Positions 892 through 22,783 of a stretch of DNA of 64,000 nucleotides are shown piece by piece. A program made the position numbers and the translations under genes. How positions within the stretch are numbered: position 1 is the first letter of the stretch; the number at the start of each line of letters is the position of its first letter. The stretch is from contig CAWIIV010000007.1 in the NCBI GenBank assembly GCA_963836205.1, positions 64,001-128,000 on the forward strand, written 5' to 3'. The stretch is from an uncultured Acidimicrobiia bacterium (GTDB lineage: Bacteria; Actinomycetota; Acidimicrobiia; Acidimicrobiales; AC-14). Below the pieces are notes generated by a model, which did not search any database, was not told the origin of the DNA, and saw only the letters and a program-made list of their open reading frames with translations.

Positions 892-1200
892 TCAACGGGC
901 GGTGTTCGTGGCGGGGTCGCCGTCGACCGCCGCTGCCAGGCGGGGAACCAGCTGGTCGAGCACGGTCGGCAGGCTGAGGAGGGTGTTGACCCCGTACGCC
1001 GCCTGCAGCAGGTCGTCCTGGGCGAGGAAGACGTCGCGGCCCTGCTTGGCCACGTCGAGCGTCGGTTAGACGGGGTTGCCGTCGAGGCGGCTCGTGGCCC
1101 CGTCCCGCAGGAACACGATCCAGACAACCAGATCGGCGGACACCAACCCGACCTGCTCGTCGCTCACCTCGGCGTAGAACCGGTCGGCGATCATGTCGGT
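892..1200 (-). pseudogene. iron-siderophore ABC substrate-binding protein, C-terminal remnant
   Basis: Reads ...FYAEVSDEQVGLVSADLVVWI...GNPV*PTLDVAKQGRDVFL...NTLLSLPTVLDQLVPRLAAAVDGDPATN; in-frame TAA at 1066-1068; N-terminus missing. Confidence 0.7.
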
Positions 1201-1470: not shown

Positions 1471-2109
1471 ACGCTGGGCGGGGGTCTGGTCGCCACCCTC
1501 GCCGTCTACCTGCTCGCCTACCGGAAGGGCATCAGCGGCTACCGCCTGGTGCTGGTGGGCATCGGCATCTCCTTCATGCTCTACGCCGTCGTCGACTACA
1601 TGCTCACCCGGGCCGAGATCTTCGACGCGGCCCAGGCCACCATCTGGCTCACGGGGAGCCTCAACGGCCGGGGCTGGGAGCACGTCCGGCCCGCCGGCGT
1701 GGCCCTGGCCGTGCTGCTGCCGGCGGCGCTGGTCCTCAGCCGCCAGCTGCGCACGCTGCAGCTGGGCGACGACGCCGCCCGCGGCCTCGGTGTCCGCATC
1801 GGGCGGGCCCGGTTGGGGCTGATCGTGACCGGGGTGGGGCTGGCGGCGGTGGCGACGGCGTCGGCCGGGCCGGTCCCCTTCGTCGCCCTCGTCTCGCCCC
1901 AGATCGCCCGCCGGCTGGCGGGAGCATCGAACCTGTCCCTGGTGCCGGCGGCCCTGGCCGGGGCGGCCCTGATGCTCCTGTCCGACCTCGTCGGCCGCCG
2001 GCTGTTCGCGCCGACGCAGCTTCCCGTCGGGATCACCTCCTCGATCGTGGGCGCCCCCTACCTCCTGTGGCTCCTCGCCCGAGCCAACCGCATCGGTCGA
2101 GGCGGGTGA
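1471..2109 (+). pseudogene. FecCD/FepG-type iron-siderophore permease, N-terminally truncated
   Basis: [57 protein letters not shown] motifs; lacks roughly the first third. Confidence 0.8.
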
Positions 2110-2185
2110 CGACTATGGACCGGCGCCGTGGTTTGTGCCCGGCGCCAGGCGGGGTGTGCCGCGTGGGGCGTACGCTCGGGACGTC

Positions 2186-2788
2186 ATGAGGACGACCCCT
2201 CGCCGCGCCGGTGTGGCGGTGGTGGCCGCTCTCGGTCTGGCAGGCCTCGGCCTGGCCCACGTCCTCGAGTACCTCGCCCTGGTGCCGAATGGCCACCACC
2301 GGGCCGACGTCCTGGCCGCCACCGGGCACGCCTACCTTCCCTCCGTCCTCAGCGCGGCCGGCTTCCTGGCCGCAGTGGCAGTTGCCGCCGTGTTCGTGCG
2401 CGGGTTCCGCGCCGGCGACGGCAATGGGCGGGCGGTCACCACCACCGGGACGGACTGGACCCGACTCCTCCCTGTGGTCCAGGCCGCCGCGTTCGTGGCG
2501 GTAGAGGTGGCGGAGCGGCTCGTCGTCGGCGCCTCTCTTGCCGATCTCGGGCCCGTCCTGGTCCTCGGCCTGCCCTTGCAGGTGCTGGCCGGCATCGCCG
2601 GGGGTCGGGTGCTCTCCGCGGCGGCGCGGGCCGGCACCCGGCTGGCCCGAGCCTTGGCCGGCTCGGGTTTCGCTCGCCGCCGGCCGACCCCCGGTTGGCG
2701 GCCGCTCGCCGACGTCGCACCCGTCACCACGCTCGCGGGCGGGCCGACGCCGGCCCGCGGCCCACCCTCGCTCCTCGTTCCCGTCTGA
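2186..2788 (+). CDS. His-containing membrane protein with C-terminal RGPP motif (putative arrest-peptide uORF of copper operon)
   Basis: About 4 TM segments with AHVLEY, HH, GHAY; C-terminal PARGPP (RGPP codons 2756-2767); directly upstream of copper genes. Confidence 0.75.
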
Positions 2789-2835
2789 GCCAACACAACC
2801 GACCGCCCCGGCGCGGGGCGGCAGACAACGAGGAG
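2771..2835 (+). promoter_or_regulatory. SD-sequestering stem-loop
   Basis: CTCCTCGTT (2771-2779) is the exact complement of AACGAGGAG (2827-2835, SD of the 2843 ATG); GTCTG (2783-2787) pairs with CAGAC (2822-2826); inner 8-bp hairpin 2803-2821. Confidence 0.7.
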
Positions 2836-2842
2836 ACTTCCA

Positions 2843-3496
2843 ATGAGATCGCTTTTCCCGCGGCTGGCCGCGGCCGGATTCGGGCTCGTCATGCTCGTCG
2901 GACCCCTGGCCGGGGCCGCTTCCGCCCACGAGCGGCGCTCCGTCGGCACGCTCCAGTTTGTCGTCGGCTGGGGTGCCGAACCGACCTTCACCGGCTACCT
3001 CAACGGCGTGCAGATCACCATCCGGGACGCGTCGGCGGCCGGGGACCCGGTGCCCGTCACCGACGCTGCCGACACCCTGAAGGTGGAAGTGGCCTTCGGC
3101 GACCAGAAGGTCGGCCCTCTCGACCTCGACACCGTCTTCAACTCGCCCGGCGAGTACCAGGCGCCGCTCGTGCCCACCCGGGCCGGCGTCTACTCGTTCC
3201 GCTTCGTGGGGACGGTGAAGGGCCAGGCGGTGGACGAGACGTTCACCTCGTCGGACACCACGTTCGAGTCGCCCGAGGAGACAACGGAGATCGAGTTTCC
3301 GGTGAAGGACCCGAGCCCGGCCGAGCTCTCCAGCCGGGTCGAACGGGTGGACGCCCGGGCCGGGGCGGCCGCCGATTCGGCCGACGACGCCGGTAGCAAG
3401 GGCTCGACGGCGACCGCCATCGGTGCCGCCGGGCTGGCGCTGGCGGTGGTGGCCCTCGGGCTGGCCATCAGGCTGCGCAAGGGGTCCAAGGCCTAG
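2843..3496 (+). CDS. exported, C-terminally membrane-anchored protein with N-terminal His (YcnI-like position; putative Cu-binding)
   Basis: Signal peptide ASA-HE..., beta-rich domain, C-terminal TM plus basic tail; GAGGAG RBS; precedes CopC/D. Confidence 0.7.
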   Translation: MRSLFPRLAAAGFGLVMLVGPLAGAASAHERRSVGTLQFVVGWGAEPTFTGYLNGVQITIRDASAAGDPVPVTDAADTLKVEVAFGDQKVGPLDLDTVFNSPGEYQAPLVPTRAGVYSFRFVGTVKGQAVDETFTSSDTTFESPEETTEIEFPVKDPSPAELSSRVERVDARAGAAADSADDAGSKGSTATAIGAAGLALAVVALGLAIRLRKGSKA

Positions 3497-3499
3497 CCG

Positions 3500-5455
3500 G
3501 TGCCGCGCTCCACCCCGACGGTGGCCAGGGCGGTGCTGGTCGCCCTGGCCGTCGTGGCCGGACTGGCCGTGGGTCCGACGCGGGCGGCCTGGGCCCATGG
3601 CGTGCTGCGGGCGTCCGACCCGGCTGCCGGCGCGGCCGTCGACCAGTCCCCGGCCCACCTCACCCTCAGCTTCACCGAGGCGCCCGAGCTGCGCTTCTCG
3701 TCGGTGAAGGTCCTCGACGGCACCGGTCGCTCGTTCGGCACGGGCGGTGTGCAAGAGGTCGCGGGCGATCCGGAGACGATCACCCAACCCCTCCAACCCC
3801 TGCCCAAGGGCGTCTACACGGTGAGCTGGCGCATCGTGTCCCGGGTCGACGGCCACCTCACCGCAGGGTCCTTCGCGTTCGGCGTGCAGACGCCGGTGAC
3901 CGCGGACGCCGCGGCCGCGGCCGGCGCGCGGACGGCGTCGCCAGCCGCCAACCGGTCGCTGGCCGCCGTCGGGGGACGGGCCCTGCTCTACGCCGGGCTG
4001 GCGTGTCTCCTGGGCGGGGCGTGGGTCGGCGCCCTGCTGTTCCGCGAGCGGCGCCGAGGTCTGGTGGTCCTGCTGGGGGCGGGCTGGTTGGTCGCCCTCG
4101 CCGGGGTGGTGGCCGTCGGTCTGGCTCAGCGCAGCACGACGGGGGCCTCGCTCAGCGTGTTTCTCCAGTCCCGGCTGGGCCGTTCGGTGCTCTGGCGGCT
4201 GATCGGGCTGTTGGCGGCCGGCGTGGGCGTCGCCCTTGTCGCCGGCCGGCGCCGGTGGCGGCCGGGTCTGGCGCTGGTGGCCGCCGGCACGCTGGGCACG
4301 ATCGTGGCCCACGTGGTGTCGGGCCACGCGGCCGCGTCGTCGACGGCGTGGCTGGCCGTCGGTGTGCAGGCGGTCCACGTGGTGGCGATGGCCGTCTGGA
4401 TCGGCGGGCTGGCCGCGCTACTGGCGGGCGCCGTTGGCCGGGCGGGCGACCTCGCGGCGGCGGCCGCGGTCAGGAGGTTCTCGGCGGTGGCGGCCGTTTC
4501 CGTCGGCGCCCTGGTCGTCACGGGTGTGCTCCGGGCCATCGACGAGGTGGACGGGTGGCGGCCGCTGGTCGACGCCACCTACGGACGACTGGTGCTGGTC
4601 AAGGGCGCGCTCCTGGCCGTGATCGCCGCCCTGGGGGCGGTGAACCGCTACCGTCACGTGCCGGCCGCGGGCCGTTCTCTCACCGGCCTCCGCCGGATCG
4701 GGACGACGGAGGTGGCGGTGGCCCTCCTCGTGTTCGCCGTCACCGGCCTGCTGACGACGTCTCCGCCGCCGGCCACGGCCAGGGTGACCGATCCGGCGGT
4801 GGTGGTCACCGCCTCCGACTTCGGCACCACCGTCCGGGCCCGGCTGACGGTGTCACCGGGGCAGCCCGGCGTGAACCGGTTCACGGTCGAGCTCACCGAC
4901 TACGACACCTATGAGCCGGTGGCTGCGGCCGGCATATCCGCTCGCTTCGTCCTGCCCGCCGACGGAGGGGTCAGCCCGTCGACGCTCGACCTACCGCCGA
5001 CGGGTGCCGGGACCTTCGCCGCCTCCGGTCCCAACCTGACGCTGCCCGGCCGGTGGCGGGTCACGCTGGTCATCAATCGGGGGGCGGACGCTCTGGAGCT
5101 CACTGCCGACCTGGTGACCCGTGCGCCACCGGGACTGGTGACGATCACCCCCGGCCGGCCCACCGTCTACAGCGTCGACCTCGGCCAGGGCCGCACGGTC
5201 CAGGTCTACGCCGACCCCGAGGCACCCGGCGCCATCGAACTGCACGCCACCTTTTTCTCGGCCGCCGGCACCGAGGAGCCGGTCGACGTGGCCACCGTGA
5301 CCGCGTCGGGAGCGACGGCCACGCCTCGGCGGCTAGGGCCGGGCCATTTCGTCGCCGATGTCCAGGCCCCATCCGGCGCCTGGCCGGTTGAGGTCACCGG
5401 CGTCACGCCCGGCGGCGACTACCTGTACGCACCCCTGACCCTGGAGATCGAGTGA
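3500..5455 (+). CDS. copper resistance/uptake CopC-CopD fusion (YcnJ-like) with C-terminal Ig-like domains
   Basis: AWA-HGVLRASDP...GVYTVSWRIVSRVDGHLTAGSFAFGV (CopC); SGHAA, HVVAMAVWIGGL, RRFS, TYGRLVLVK (CopD). Confidence 0.9.
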   Translation: MPRSTPTVARAVLVALAVVAGLAVGPTRAAWAHGVLRASDPAAGAAVDQSPAHLTLSFTEAPELRFSSVKVLDGTGRSFGTGGVQEVAGDPETITQPLQPLPKGVYTVSWRIVSRVDGHLTAGSFAFGVQTPVTADAAAAAGARTASPAANRSLAAVGGRALLYAGLACLLGGAWVGALLFRERRRGLVVLLGAGWLVALAGVVAVGLAQRSTTGASLSVFLQSRLGRSVLWRLIGLLAAGVGVALVAGRRRWRPGLALVAAGTLGTIVAHVVSGHAAASSTAWLAVGVQAVHVVAMAVWIGGLAALLAGAVGRAGDLAAAAAVRRFSAVAAVSVGALVVTGVLRAIDEVDGWRPLVDATYGRLVLVKGALLAVIAALGAVNRYRHVPAAGRSLTGLRRIGTTEVAVALLVFAVTGLLTTSPPPATARVTDPAVVVTASDFGTTVRARLTVSPGQPGVNRFTVELTDYDTYEPVAAAGISARFVLPADGGVSPSTLDLPPTGAGTFAASGPNLTLPGRWRVTLVINRGADALELTADLVTRAPPGLVTITPGRPTVYSVDLGQGRTVQVYADPEAPGAIELHATFFSAAGTEEPVDVATVTASGATATPRRLGPGHFVADVQAPSGAWPVEVTGVTPGGDYLYAPLTLEIE

Positions 5456-5886
5456 TGAGAATCCGAAGCCCCCTGGCCGCGGCCGCCCTGCTCGCCCTGG
5501 CGACCGCCTGTGGCGGGGGCGACGGCGGAGGAGGGGCGCCCGAGGGCGTCCGACCATCGTCGACCGCCACCCTTTCCATCGTCGACCCGGCCAATGAGTC
5601 CACGGTCCCGCCCGGCCTGCTCACCGTCCGTCTCGACCTCCAGGGGGCCCGCATCGTGGAGGAGGCGACCACCGCCTTGCGGCCGGACGAGGGCCACGTC
5701 CACCTCAACCTCGACGGCAAGCTGGTGTCGATGGCGTACGGCCTCGAGCAACAGGTGGAGGTCACGCCCGGCATCCACCAGCTGATCGCCGAGTTCGTCG
5801 CCGGCGACCACGCCCCCTTCAACCCGCGGGTGGCGGCGACCCGGACCTTCGCGGTGTCCGACGGCCAGGCGCGCCCAAGTGGGTAG
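5452..5886 (+). CDS. lipoprotein, putative metal-binding (DUF4399-like)
   Basis: Lipobox LATAC; GHVHLNLDG and HQLIAEFVAGDH motifs; overlaps the copCD stop. Confidence 0.75.
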   Translation: MMRIRSPLAAAALLALATACGGGDGGGGAPEGVRPSSTATLSIVDPANESTVPPGLLTVRLDLQGARIVEEATTALRPDEGHVHLNLDGKLVSMAYGLEQQVEVTPGIHQLIAEFVAGDHAPFNPRVAATRTFAVSDGQARPSG

Positions 5887-5896
5887 AGAGGGTTCC

Positions 5897-6418
5897 ATGG
5901 TGGATCCCCGGCTGGACGTGCTCGCCGGCGTGGTGGGACGGGTGGAGGTGAAGGCGCGGTGGCTGGCGCGCCTGGCCACGAGGGGCGCCGTCGCCGGCGC
6001 GGTCGCCGCCTTCCCGTTGTGGTGGGTGGTGGCCGGCGACGGAGTCACCGAGTGGTTTGCGGGGACCGCGGCGTCGCTGCTGGTCCTGGGCCTGTTCCTC
6101 GCGCCGGCGGCGTGGCTGGTGAACGTGCGGTTCGCACTGCTCGAGCTGGTCGAGCTGCCGCAGAAGCTGGCCGGCGTGGCGACTCGTCGGGCGGCGCACC
6201 TGCGAACGGGCGCCCCGGAACGGCCCGACCAAGGATCCTTCGCCGCGGCGCGGTCGGTGTGGGGAGTCCTCAACGACTATGGCGACGTCGTCGGGGCCTG
6301 GGGCACCGTCGCCCAACTGGTCGCCCCGTGGTTCTGGCTCCTCACCGCCGCCGCCTTCGTTGCCGTGCCGGTGGTGGGGCTGCTGGCGGCGGTGATAGTG
6401 CTGGTGGGGCTCGTGTGA
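5897..6418 (+). CDS. hypothetical membrane protein
   Basis: ATG after GAGAGGG; 3 hydrophobic segments; contiguous with the operon. Confidence 0.6.
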   Translation: MVDPRLDVLAGVVGRVEVKARWLARLATRGAVAGAVAAFPLWWVVAGDGVTEWFAGTAASLLVLGLFLAPAAWLVNVRFALLELVELPQKLAGVATRRAAHLRTGAPERPDQGSFAAARSVWGVLNDYGDVVGAWGTVAQLVAPWFWLLTAAAFVAVPVVGLLAAVIVLVGLV

Positions 6419-6441
6419 TGACGCAGACCAAGGAGGACGCA

Positions 6442-6648
6442 ATGGAAACCGTGGCCCGGGTGACCGAGATCAGCGCCATGTCGGCGACCGGCTTCGAGGA
6501 CGCGATCCGGGTGGGGATCACCCGGGCCTCGCAGACCCTCCGCCAGGTCACGTCGGCCTGGGTCAAGGAGCAGCGAGTCGAGGTACGCGACGGCGCCATC
6601 GTCGGCTACCAGGTGAACATGCTGGTGACGTTCGTCCTCGACGACTAA
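6442..6648 (+). CDS. dodecin family flavin-binding protein
   Basis: METVARVTEISAMSATGFEDAIRVGITRASQTLRQVTSAWVKEQ...YQVNMLVTFVLDD; AGGAGG RBS. Confidence 0.9.
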   Translation: METVARVTEISAMSATGFEDAIRVGITRASQTLRQVTSAWVKEQRVEVRDGAIVGYQVNMLVTFVLDD

Positions 6649-13431: not shown

Positions 13432-13638
13432 GTGTTCCTGGGTGAAGACCTCCTGCCCTACCTCCTGCTCGCCCTCGGCGGGGCCCTGGTGTTCGGCAAC
13501 GTGCTCGCCCTCGCCCGGCCGCCCCGGGAGGCCAAGGACGGCGACCTGCCCCGCCCACCCCTCGGCCGGAGCGTCGTGATGATCGTCATCGGCCTGGTGA
13601 CGGCCATCTGGGCGCTGGCCAGCCTCGTCTCCGGCTGA
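13432..13638 (+). CDS. small two-TM membrane protein
   Basis: TAGGTT-N6-GTG leaderless pattern; two hydrophobic helices. Confidence 0.7.
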   Translation: MFLGEDLLPYLLLALGGALVFGNVLALARPPREAKDGDLPRPPLGRSVVMIVIGLVTAIWALASLVSG

Positions 13639-13671
13639 CCTCAGCCCGTCCGCCTCGCGGGCTTGCGGTCG

Positions 13672-21376: not shown

Positions 21377-22783
21377 TCAGGCGAGGAGCGCGAGCAGGGC
21401 CCGGCGGTCGGGCCCGGGCATTCGCAGGGGCGGGCCCGGGGGCACCGCCCCGACCTTCTCCATGAACCCGGGCCGGGCGAAGACCTCCTGGGGCAGGGCC
21501 AGGCACATGGCCGTCTCCAGGACACCCCGGAACACGTCCGGGTCGTGGAACATGGCTCCCCCCACCGCCACCATCGTGGGGTCGGGCGCCGGCGGCTCGT
21601 CGCCTCGGCGGAGGGCGTCCATCTCGGCAATCCGCCGACGGTCGGCCGTGATCTGGTTCCAGTAGTAGGGCGCCACCCGCTCCTCGGTCACCTGGTCGAA
21701 CGCCCTCACGAGTCCCTCGGGGTCAGCCACACCCCATGTCCGCACCACCTGCCGCAGTCCCTGGGCATGGACGAGCCCGACGGTGATGCCCCGCCCGGCG
21801 GACGGGTTGGTGCACGCCCACGCGTCCCCCACCGCGACCACGCCCGTCGCCACCGGTTGGTCGTCCACCACGAACCGCCGGTAGCGGTCGAGCACGCCGG
21901 CCATGGTGAGCACGCCCGTGATCGGTTCCCCCCGCACCCAGCCCGCCTGCAAGGGGCAGGCTTTCACCACCGCGGTGAACCGGTCGGCGTCCTTGAGCCC
22001 CCGCAGGGCGGTGTCGGCCGACGCCGCCCACACCGTCACCGACCACGTGCCGTTGTCGCCGGGGATGGTGAGCAGGGAGATGGTGCCGATCTCGGAGATC
22101 GGCGACGACAACACGCGGGGCAGCCTCGGGCCGGTGAAATACCGGGTGTGGTAGACGAACCCGGAGTCCTCCGACTCGACGTGGGGACGACGAGCGCCTA
22201 CCGCCTCCAGCCACTCGGCCAGGCGGGTGCGGCGGCCAGTGGCGTCGAGGACGAGGTCGGCGGCCAGCTCGTCGCCGTCGGTCGTGTGCACCCCGACCAC
22301 GTGGGGCACGCCCGCCACCACCTCCTCCGCCGCCGGTCCAGCAAGTAGTCCCGCGCCGGCGACGCCCCGCCGAACCTCCACCCCGTCCTCCGCTTCCGCC
22401 GCCTGGGCGAGCACCGCCTCGATCACCGGCCGCCGCCCGGTGACGAACCGGAACCGGTCGTCGCCGTCCTGCGGGGTCTTGTCGAGCGACGGCGGGGCCA
22501 TGCCGATGGGATCCACCCACACGCAGCCGGCCTCGACCAACCGGTCGACCACGCCCGGCAGTTCCTCGTCGAGGATGAGACGAGCCCGGGAGAACAGGTT
22601 GTGGGGCTGGTGGAACTGGGCCACTCCCGGCCGCGACCACCCCTCCCAGGCGTCGGCGGCCGGGCCCGGCGGCGGGGGCGACCCGTCCCGCTCCAAGACG
22701 GTCACCCGGTGGCCGTCCCGGGCCAGCATCATCGCCGACGCCAGCCCGATGACACTTCCCCCGCACACCACGATCGACGCCAT
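21377..22783 (-). CDS. FAD-dependent oxidoreductase (monooxygenase/halogenase-like fold)
   Basis: N-terminal Rossmann motif VVCGGSVIG...VLERD, LDATGR, VGDAWACTNPSAGRG. Confidence 0.85.
   Translation of the reverse strand: MASIVVCGGSVIGLASAMMLARDGHRVTVLERDGSPPPPGPAADAWEGWSRPGVAQFHQPHNLFSRARLILDEELPGVVDRLVEAGCVWVDPIGMAPPSLDKTPQDGDDRFRFVTGRRPVIEAVLAQAAEAEDGVEVRRGVAGAGLLAGPAAEEVVAGVPHVVGVHTTDGDELAADLVLDATGRRTRLAEWLEAVGARRPHVESEDSGFVYHTRYFTGPRLPRVLSSPISEIGTISLLTIPGDNGTWSVTVWAASADTALRGLKDADRFTAVVKACPLQAGWVRGEPITGVLTMAGVLDRYRRFVVDDQPVATGVVAVGDAWACTNPSAGRGITVGLVHAQGLRQVVRTWGVADPEGLVRAFDQVTEERVAPYYWNQITADRRRIAEMDALRRGDEPPAPDPTMVAVGGAMFHDPDVFRGVLETAMCLALPQEVFARPGFMEKVGAVPPGPPLRMPGPDRRALLALLA

Follow-up and report, generated by a model that had tools for sequence, protein, structure and literature searches.

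Two copper-linked upstream open reading frames (uORFs) have been characterised, CruR and CutF, both of them of the DUF2946 type (PMC9426467; bioRxiv 10.1101/2025.02.05.636593). In Bordetella pertussis, copper relieves an arrest at the RAPP motif of CruR, which allows Rho to end transcription in the spacer ahead of the next gene (PMC9426467), and in Rhodobacter capsulatus, copper induces a stall in CutF which melts a stem shielding the ribosome-binding site (RBS) of cutO (bioRxiv 10.1101/2025.02.05.636593). Transmembrane (TM) RAPP/RGPP uORFs upstream of copper-related genes in Actinomycetota were reported by Fujiwara et al. (EMBO J 2025; PMC12992588). The present work concerns a candidate leader of this kind in a 64,000-nucleotide (nt) stretch of DNA from an uncultured Acidimicrobiia bacterium (GenBank assembly GCA_963836205.1, contig CAWIIV010000007.1, positions 64,001 to 128,000 of the forward strand), which is called the window below; coordinates are positions in this window, and all features are on the + strand unless stated. 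The open reading frame (ORF) at 2186-2788 encodes a 200-amino acid (aa) protein, P0001, which carries an RGPP motif near its end and precedes genes for a secreted protein and a CopC-CopD fusion. It was considered, with a probability of about 0.6, to be a cis-acting regulatory leader and membrane sensor, in which an RGPP arrest peptide is carried on a small polytopic domain.

RAPP and RGPP are depleted from proteomes and strongly avoided in bacteria; they produced robust arrest in four arrest-peptide contexts (ApcA, ApdA, ApdP and SecM), this arrest was refractory to EF-P, and all seven C-terminal RAPP/RGPP proteins tested from Streptomyces lividans were found to arrest translation both in vitro and in vivo, and the arrest depended on the Arg (PMC12992588). 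According to the same work, both motifs are over-represented close to the C-terminal end of small proteins, secreted or in the membrane, whose genes precede those for YcnI-family proteins, PCu(A)C and TonB receptors, among others, and most uORFs of the YcnI class have TM segments. SLIV_18480, a four-TM protein of S. lividans, arrested in vitro and in a Bacillus subtilis reporter, and a copper site made of three His and one Met was predicted for it (PMC12992588). The regulation of downstream genes by these copper-linked proteins was not part of that work, no mention of a Shine-Dalgarno (SD) sequence, a stem-loop or mRNA secondary structure was found in its main text, and literature searches found no further paper on membrane RGPP leaders of copper operons. 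A preliminary description of the window had stated that no characterised example existed in this form, which is outdated: Fujiwara et al. report the kind, with arrest shown for SLIV_18480. The kind is thus known, and it is the sensor family and RNA gate presented here that were not found described in the literature consulted.

Three features of the class of Fujiwara et al. were present in P0001: R[AG]PP near the C-terminus of a protein of less than 300 aa, hydrophobic TM stretches and a co-directional downstream gene. These are shared with SLIV_18480, as are the approximately four TM segments, the conserved His residues proposed as a metal site, the origin in Actinomycetota and the role of the downstream gene in extracytoplasmic metal handling. 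The candidate ligands differ, since SLIV_18480 is described as having three His and one Met, together with Cys40 and Cys127, whereas the sensor family has two invariant His and two invariant Glu and P0001 has no Cys. Unlike the YcnI class of PMC12992588, the gene downstream of P0001 belongs to an unnamed family and is not an annotated YcnI. Like CruR-bfrG of B. pertussis, in which RAPP lies three residues from the end of CruR, P0001 heads a copper-homeostasis operon, and the spacing from metal motif to arrest motif is strictly conserved in both cases (45 residues in CruR, PMC9426467; 85 in the sensor family); but CruR is an exported CXXC protein acting through Rho-dependent termination over a 162-bp spacer, whereas P0001 has a 54-nt spacer and an SD-sequestering stem. 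The CutF-cutO pair also has a copper-linked exported leader, with a C-terminal proline stall that melts an RBS-shielding stem, but CutF has a Sec signal peptide, a CXXXC motif and an EF-P-sensitive PPP stall, whereas P0001 is polytopic and has RGPP, no Cys and no DUF2946 match. With SecM-secA, MifM-yidC2 and ApdA/ApdP, P0001 shares a putative force-sensitive C-terminal arrest near the stop codon, a putative SD-unmasking logic and the RAPP/RAGP motif class. These monitor localisation machinery that is encoded downstream of them, in contrast to the copper proteins encoded downstream of P0001 and the candidate metal ligands in the sensor itself.

The leader ORF runs from ATG 2186 to TGA 2786-2788, and its upstream neighbour is a FecCD-type permease gene ending at 2109. 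RGPP (residues 191-194 of 200) is encoded by CGC GGC CCA CCC at 2756-2767, six codons before the stop, exactly where the preliminary description had placed it, and is followed by the six residues SLLVPV. If the predicted stall resembles that of CruR, for which a toeprint is reported in PMC12992588, the P-site codon would be CCA (2762-2764) and the A-site codon CCC (2765-2767). The next gene on the same strand begins at 2843, after the 54-nt spacer, and its SD core GAGGAG (2830-2835) sits 7 nt 5' of ATG 2843. The strand CTCCTCGTT in the last leader codons (2771-2779, +9 to +17 from the P-site codon) is the perfect complement of AACGAGGAG (2827-2835), the SD strand of the next gene. This stem is prolonged by a middle helix between GTCTG (2783-2787, overlapping the stop codon) and CAGAC (2822-2826), around an intergenic GC-rich inner hairpin of 8 bp with a 3-nt loop (2803-2821). 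All of these pairings had been proposed beforehand, and sequence and RNAfold agreed on them: the minimum free energy (MFE) structure of 2740-2860 reproduced the nested stem structure at -51.8 kcal/mol (z = -2.49), a stability that 3 of 200 shuffled sequences also reached. No Rfam match of relevance was obtained; the sole hit at E<=1, to a snoRNA model on the minus strand (2064-2124), fell far short of the gathering score.

In partition-function calculations, the unpaired probability of the SD core at this locus was 0.001 in the free RNA and 0.16 when the stall window was removed, and none of 60 codon permutations sequestered the SD as well as the native sequence. As a genome-wide control, 123 same-strand junctions of the same genome were taken from heuristic calls (coding-like ORFs, SD present, gap of 25-100 nt). 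Their median SD-core unpaired probability was 0.34, versus 0.0012 at the leader junction, and 4 of the 123, the leader junction included, were at or below the latter value. Taken alone, the stem of the leader junction is in approximately the top 3% of junctions, unusual but not unique. Pairing of the SD as complete as this with the end of the upstream ORF was seen for only one other distinct junction sequence, present twice: it is identical on contigs C5 (~942-985, minus strand) and C8 (~223731-223774, minus strand), in a repeated element or duplicated region, and has no arrest motif. Among five genus-level sequences, the inner hairpin was 100% paired, with two compensatory pairs, the GTCTG/CAGAC middle helix was paired in 88% of cells and the anti-SD/SD helix was 86.7% paired, through conservation only. 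The comparative evidence is a stronger argument than the stem at a single junction.

Across the sequences compared, R[AG]PP is the most conserved feature of the sensor family. A profile search of 1.84 billion representatives gave 2181 matches at E<=0.001, of which 1405 were at E<=1e-10. R[AG]PP was present in 141 of the best 150 of these 2181 representatives (107 RGPP and 34 RAPP), and in 139 it was no more than 10 residues away from the C-terminus; four more of the best 150 had RSPP at the same place, and the last five looked truncated, fused or frameshifted. Complete genomic copies had R[AG]PP 1-8 residues before the stop in 48 cases out of 50, down to approximately 30% identity, the two exceptions being L051, with RDPP, and L032, where the frame continues. 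Between ExxER and the R of RxPP the median distance was 85 residues, and 129 of 164 proteins fell in the range 84-86; the linker in between was poorly conserved in sequence despite its fixed length. Elsewhere in the window, R[AG]PP near a C-terminus occurred only in two frames, neither of which was treated as a gene: 22138-22443 (+), with a low GC content at third codon positions (GC3, 0.52), and 13458-13640 (minus strand), a 60-codon frame with a GC3 of 0.97 and no obvious long gene around it, which ends in ...NTRAPPRASRR, with RAPP five residues before the stop.

P0001 matched no Pfam (E<=0.01) or NCBIfam family, and by its sequence the leader is a member of a large unnamed actinobacterial family. 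Homologues of P0001 were found in 14 of 41 related genomes, in 10 of 401 genomes of the class and in 95 of 401 genomes of the phylum, and none of the 95 matching genomes of the phylum sample was larger than 6.6 Mb; the tallies of 14/41 and 95/401 include unpublished genomes (G008, G015, G021, G432, G448, G508, G514, G569, G593, G641 and G653), for the publication of which the permission of the depositors is needed. A locus search of genome and metagenome contig collections with the single P0001 sequence gave no match, and an alignment-based locus search gave two metagenome loci and four genome loci, the latter corresponding to L002-L005. Fourteen columns were invariant in an alignment of 90 family members (H25, Y29, R39, G47, H48, Q99, F103, E107, E110, R111, G128, R191, P193 and P194), Y50 and P34 were at least 90% conserved, and no Met or Cys column was invariant or at least 90% conserved. 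The codons of H25, Y29, R39, G47-H48 and Y50, candidate metal ligands among them, lie at 2258-2329 (end of TM1 and first outside loop), and those of Q99, F103, E107, E110 and R111, which include the ExxER motif in a weakly hydrophobic third helix, at 2480-2518.

The hydrophobic stretches of P0001 are residues 8-33, 49-76 and 111-143, and positive charges are located in the N-terminus, in the loop 72-92 and in the C-tail; the third span (93-114, with E107, E110 and R111) stays under the hydropathy threshold. According to our own reading of hydropathy and the positive-inside rule, P0001 is probably an N-in/C-in protein with four membrane spans and an Arg-rich C-terminal linker, and H25, H48, E107 and E110 would lie toward the outer face of the membrane. 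The preliminary description of P0001 as a His protein with about four TM segments was thus partly retained: four spans fit hydropathy and charge, but the third helix is below threshold and the pair HH (H36/H37) is not conserved in relatives. Its contrast between a polytopic sensor and a Cys-motif DUF2946 peptide was borne out by a protein with conserved His and Glu, no Cys and no DUF2946 match.

Pairing of the SD was analysed in 45 family loci that had a complete ORF end, the motif and a callable downstream start with an SD, so that a co-directional gene was a condition of retention. Loci were dropped when the ORF runs off the locus (L013, L014, L022, L026), as duplicates (L015 of L001, and L027-L030 of L002-L005), or for individual reasons: L032 (no in-frame stop or motif, probably a frameshift), L040 (locus ending 38 nt past the stop), L046 and L055 (no downstream start with an SD by the rule used) and L051 (RDPP and a doubtful start). 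Loci from unpublished genomes are among the 45 (L010 from G008, L011 from G021, L034 from G514 and L054 from G569; depositors' permission needed for publication). The stall footprint was defined as -12 to +17 from the P-site Pro codon, and the stall window in the duplex rank test had 28 nt.

In local MFE structures, at least four of the six SD-core nt were paired in 38/45 loci, and they were paired with the stall footprint in 30/45. In the duplex rank test, the stall window was the best partner of the SD in the whole ORF in 10 of the 45 loci, in the top 5% in 14 and in the top 10% in 21. Codon choice followed the same direction: the first Pro codon of the motif was the rare CCT in 18/45 loci, compared with 88/1187 (7.4%) of the other Pro codons of the same loci (binomial 1e-9), and tail Leu codons were CTC in 33/45 versus a background of 43%; CCU-CCN together with CUC codons spell an anti-SD. 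Native duplexes between stall window and SD region had a mean of -16.2 kcal/mol versus -14.0 for mismatched duplexes from other loci, with 0 of 5000 permutations as low, and the difference was retained after dereplication to one locus per close group (n=31; -17.0 versus -14.7 kcal/mol, 0 of 5000 permutations). Since native duplexes beat mismatched ones, the complementarity is locus-specific and goes beyond a generic CCUCC:GGAGG pairing. SD flank and tail were seen to co-vary, as in CCACTCC/GGAGTGG, CTCCCGT/ACGGGAG and CTCCTCC/GGAGGAG. The arrest codons and the short tail are the preferred partner of the downstream SD across many lineages, and sequestration of the SD by stall-site codons was concluded to be a recurrent, selected feature of the family, particularly strong in this window and its genus and not obligatory.

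The effect of a ribosome on this pairing was approached with two models. With 100 nt of upstream context, blocking of the footprint doubled the accessibility of the SD in 13/45 loci, versus 4/45 and 2/45 for control blocks; in this model the SD of the window re-paired, once the footprint was blocked, with a segment located about 100 nt upstream, across the ribosome. Such re-pairing was judged physically implausible, and a local model was therefore run as well, in which the median unpaired probability of the SD was 0.20 in the free RNA versus 0.41 with the stall window removed. As for the idea that a stalled ribosome unmasks the SD, which was already part of the preliminary description, the geometry, the codon bias and the locus-specific complementarity fit it, but the stem is clear in only about 10-13 of the 45 loci and is absent in a paralogue of the same genome. 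Likewise, the conservation expected among homologues was found for RGPP and for H25 and H48, but not for HH, and SD pairing turned out to be recurrent and not universal.

Several of these results, and others, weigh against an arrest-coupled SD switch. Fewer than four of the six SD-core nt were paired in 7/45 loci in the local MFE structures; in the local partition-function model the SD was at most 0.1 unpaired in the free RNA in only 10/45 loci and rose at least 3-fold on removal of the window in only 13/45, and in the model with upstream context the 13/45 loci that responded to the footprint block are likewise a minority. The SD stem is consequently strong in only about a quarter of the loci (approximately 10-13/45) and is not universal. 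The automatic choice of the SD core was visibly wrong in at least one locus, L059, which counts against the hypothesis. Pro-Pro and Leu codons are inherently rich in CCNCC and CUC, so that some complementarity to GGAGG comes free, and the binomial and Wilcoxon figures overstate significance because the loci are phylogenetically related. Other junctions of the same genome sequester their SD as strongly without an arrest motif, and the anti-SD/SD helix shows no compensatory change at the genus level because the SD strand is invariant. The paralogue mentioned above, on contig C11, has no predicted SD-sequestering stem (z = +1.18). At the protein level, arrest in the sensor family is predicted from the motif alone and the topology was read from hydropathy alone; two His and two Glu are not a classic Cu(I) site, and the metal is suggested only by the neighbouring genes. 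With these points taken into account, an arrest-coupled, SD-unmasking metal switch appears well supported by the comparative evidence.

The switch may work as follows. As long as the mRNA is free, the SD and start region of gene 2843 would be paired with the arrest codons and the six codons after them, in a helix clamped by the stable intergenic hairpin. A ribosome translating the leader would arrest at codon 2762-2764, its P site occupied by Pro192-tRNA and its A site by Pro-tRNA. Ribosomes cover approximately 15 nt downstream of the P-site codon; the arrested one would thus cover the mRNA to about +15 and keep the anti-SD (+9 to +17) open. The open SD would allow translation of the secreted His-protein gene, and with it of the CopCD operon, for as long as the arrest lasts. 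At the arrest, the fourth helix (residues ~123-146) would be approximately 47 residues back from the peptidyl-transferase centre, just out of the exit tunnel, and insertion of TM segments has been reported to pull on arrest peptides at about such a range. The arrest would be ended by a pulling force, generated as this helix inserts and packs against the His/Glu site. A ruler fixed at 85 residues, together with the invariant His and Glu residues, suggests that a metal-dependent insertion or packing of TM3-TM4 sets this force. Copper is taken to be the metal because the downstream genes encode copper-type proteins and CopC-CopD. In the polarity slightly preferred here, the arrest would persist without metal and the operon would be ON, while copper at the outer His/Glu site would lead the TM3-TM4 hairpin to insert or pack firmly, so that the arrest would be released, the stem would re-form and the operon would be OFF. 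Release of the arrest by the metal, with the operon OFF, is a CruR-like logic suited to an acquisition system and is weakly favoured.

The same arrest and RNA switch may also operate with the opposite, CutF-like polarity, in which copper would block the force-generating step and prolong the arrest, so that the operon would be ON under copper excess. CutF, in which copper induces the stall and melts the stem over the cutO RBS, is a precedent for it, and Pfam and NCBIfam name CopC and CopD as copper resistance or homeostasis proteins. Conversely, copper relieves the arrest in CruR, and among the genes of the loci inspected none was recognised as encoding an efflux ATPase or a multicopper oxidase, or as being of the CsoR type. 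CopCD-type fusions, such as YcnJ of B. subtilis, are linked to copper acquisition, which also speaks for the polarity preferred here. As a complete account, the copper-excess switch was rated as somewhat unlikely; the CutF-like polarity in itself is nearly as likely as its opposite, and sequence alone cannot decide between them.

It is less likely that the arrest is real and its main output is transcriptional polarity, with the stalled ribosome blocking Rho or with a pause or termination of RNA polymerase at the GC-rich hairpin, the pairing of the SD being secondary. CruR, with its Rho-dependent termination between uORF and next gene, works in this way. The hairpin between stop and SD was also more general than the SD stem: a GC-rich helix of at least 6 bp was present in 36/45 loci, with z<=-2 in 20/43. 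The last 100 nt of the leader ORF and the spacer are C-rich (GC skew of -0.23 to -0.25 at 2700-2819), but the ORF has a similar excess of C over G in another part, 2260-2379. A stalled ribosome would not reach the hairpin, which begins at +41 from the P-site codon; the hairpin also has no + strand U-tract, and no + strand terminator-like site was called in 1900-6600. Moreover, a model based only on Rho gives no role to the selection of CCUCC/CUC codons or to the locus-specific SD complementarity. Read on the minus strand, the inner hairpin (2802-2822) followed by CGGTTGTGTT was the only terminator-like site in 1900-6600 (one found versus 0.8 expected) and is probably meaningless.

A leader that monitors membrane insertion or the state of the envelope, as a Sec/YidC-type force sensor similar to MifM or SecM, with His and Glu serving for folding and not for metal binding, was considered improbable. 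TM segments, a linker of fixed length and a C-terminal arrest motif are the architecture of the known monitors, and membrane RAPP/RGPP proteins share features of Sec/YidC-related arrest peptides (PMC12992588); but no Sec or YidC machinery was recognised downstream in the 45 loci and in L046, L051 and L055, where copper-type proteins or CopCD were found instead, and the clustering of the invariant His and Glu toward one membrane face would be left unexplained. Least probable was an ordinary stable membrane subunit of the copper system, with R[AG]PP as a structural or interaction motif and the stem as a GC-rich coincidence: a well-conserved membrane domain with 14 invariant columns is what would be expected of a folded functional protein, and approximately 3% of the junctions of the genome sequester the SD equally without an arrest motif, but RAPP/RGPP are avoided in proteomes and arrested in every C-terminal case tested (PMC12992588), the stop always follows the motif within 1-10 residues, the linker before the motif keeps its length but not its sequence, and the use of rare CCT codons and of tails matched to the SD points to selection acting on the RNA.

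The first gene downstream of the leader (2843-3496) encodes a secreted protein of 217 aa, with a signal peptide ending in ASA|H, so that the predicted mature N-terminus is His, a conserved VGWGxEPxYxG block and a C-terminal TM anchor, an architecture that resembles YcnI. It had been taken for ycnI, which did not hold: no YcnI was detectable by Pfam, NCBIfam or PDB profiles, by a PF07987 genome search or by hhalign. A search with PF07987 recovered the B. subtilis control but gave no match in this genome or in the seven genomes searched from the same genus, and hhalign against a real DUF1775 protein gave a probability of 26%, through the signal peptide and the N-terminal His only. The protein had no Pfam, NCBIfam or PDB sequence match and 270 homologues, all of those named by the sources being "hypothetical protein". 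It follows the sensor in 32 loci. In Acidimicrobiia and other Actinomycetota, this unnamed family of secreted proteins with a predicted mature N-terminal His accompanies the sensor and CopCD as a conserved partner, and it is a candidate for a new family of extracytoplasmic copper-binding proteins. In two loci the gene downstream of the sensor is apparently frameshifted near its 5' end (L003, at ~2176-2200, with one extra base with respect to L002, and L019, at ~2130-2180, in a G run); these may be assembly errors or pseudogenes.

The secreted protein gene is followed by a gene for a CopC-CopD-YtkA fusion of 651 aa (3500-5455), with Pfam matches to CopC (7e-21; 75.5 bits, cut-off 23.3), CopD (2e-18; 67.2 bits, cut-off 32.1) and YtkA (1.5e-5); the NCBIfam CopC and CopD models matched it below their cut-offs. 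The next gene (5452-5886), the start of which overlaps the stop of CopCD, encodes a DUF4399-like lipoprotein (Pfam DUF4399, 5.8e-5, below cut-off). A CopC(D) gene was located downstream in most family loci, and the downstream genes in every lineage examined encoded secreted or lipoprotein copper-type proteins (His-protein, DUF4399-like, cupredoxin-like) together with CopC-CopD. In many other lineages (loci L031-L056) the DUF4399-like homologue sits between the secreted His-protein and CopC, and the order of genes in the operon therefore varies between lineages. In L017, L018, L020, L021 and L024, the sensor was followed not by the His-protein but by lipoproteins of 310-390 aa with long low-complexity stretches rich in His, Asp and Met and weak DUF4399 or cupredoxin matches.

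Outside the window, the same genome has another, divergent copy of the sensor on contig C11 (L062:733-1302, +). It matched the family profile with an hhalign probability of 97.9% and 29% identity over the aligned stretch, and it ends in RGPPAARFA, with RGPP five residues before the stop and a spacing from ExxE[RH] to RGPP of exactly 85. The genes 3' of this copy encode a lipoprotein of 145 aa (EEVHVHTYD motif), a polytopic membrane protein of 456 aa without a Pfam family and an Rce1-like protease.

A broader and more tentative proposal, which may well prove wrong, is that P0001 represents a distinct family of actinobacterial membrane metal sensors that act co-translationally, and a very large one, with at least 2181 clusters at 50% identity. 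The ExxER helix would insert, or pack on H25 and H48, only when the His and Glu residues are bridged by an extracytoplasmic metal, probably copper. This would happen at a distance of exactly 85 residues from the peptidyl-transferase centre and would set the force that ends the RGPP arrest, and the arrest codons themselves would have been recruited as an anti-SD. If true, one short sequence would be both a brake at the protein level and a gate at the RNA level for the new N-terminal-His copper proteins and CopCD.

Fujiwara et al. (2025) raised, for their copper-linked candidates, the question of how arrest peptides might sense anything beyond the capacity for secretion. The sensor family would be a favourable case in which to address it, with its candidate ligands H25, H48, E107 and E110, its rigid 85-residue ruler and an RGPP motif shown to arrest in several unrelated contexts. 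The SD stem of the window is unusually clean, and both of its strands are open to synonymous mutation and compensation. The value of the finding lies in the combination of a very large, sharply defined family with a clean and mutable RNA gate.

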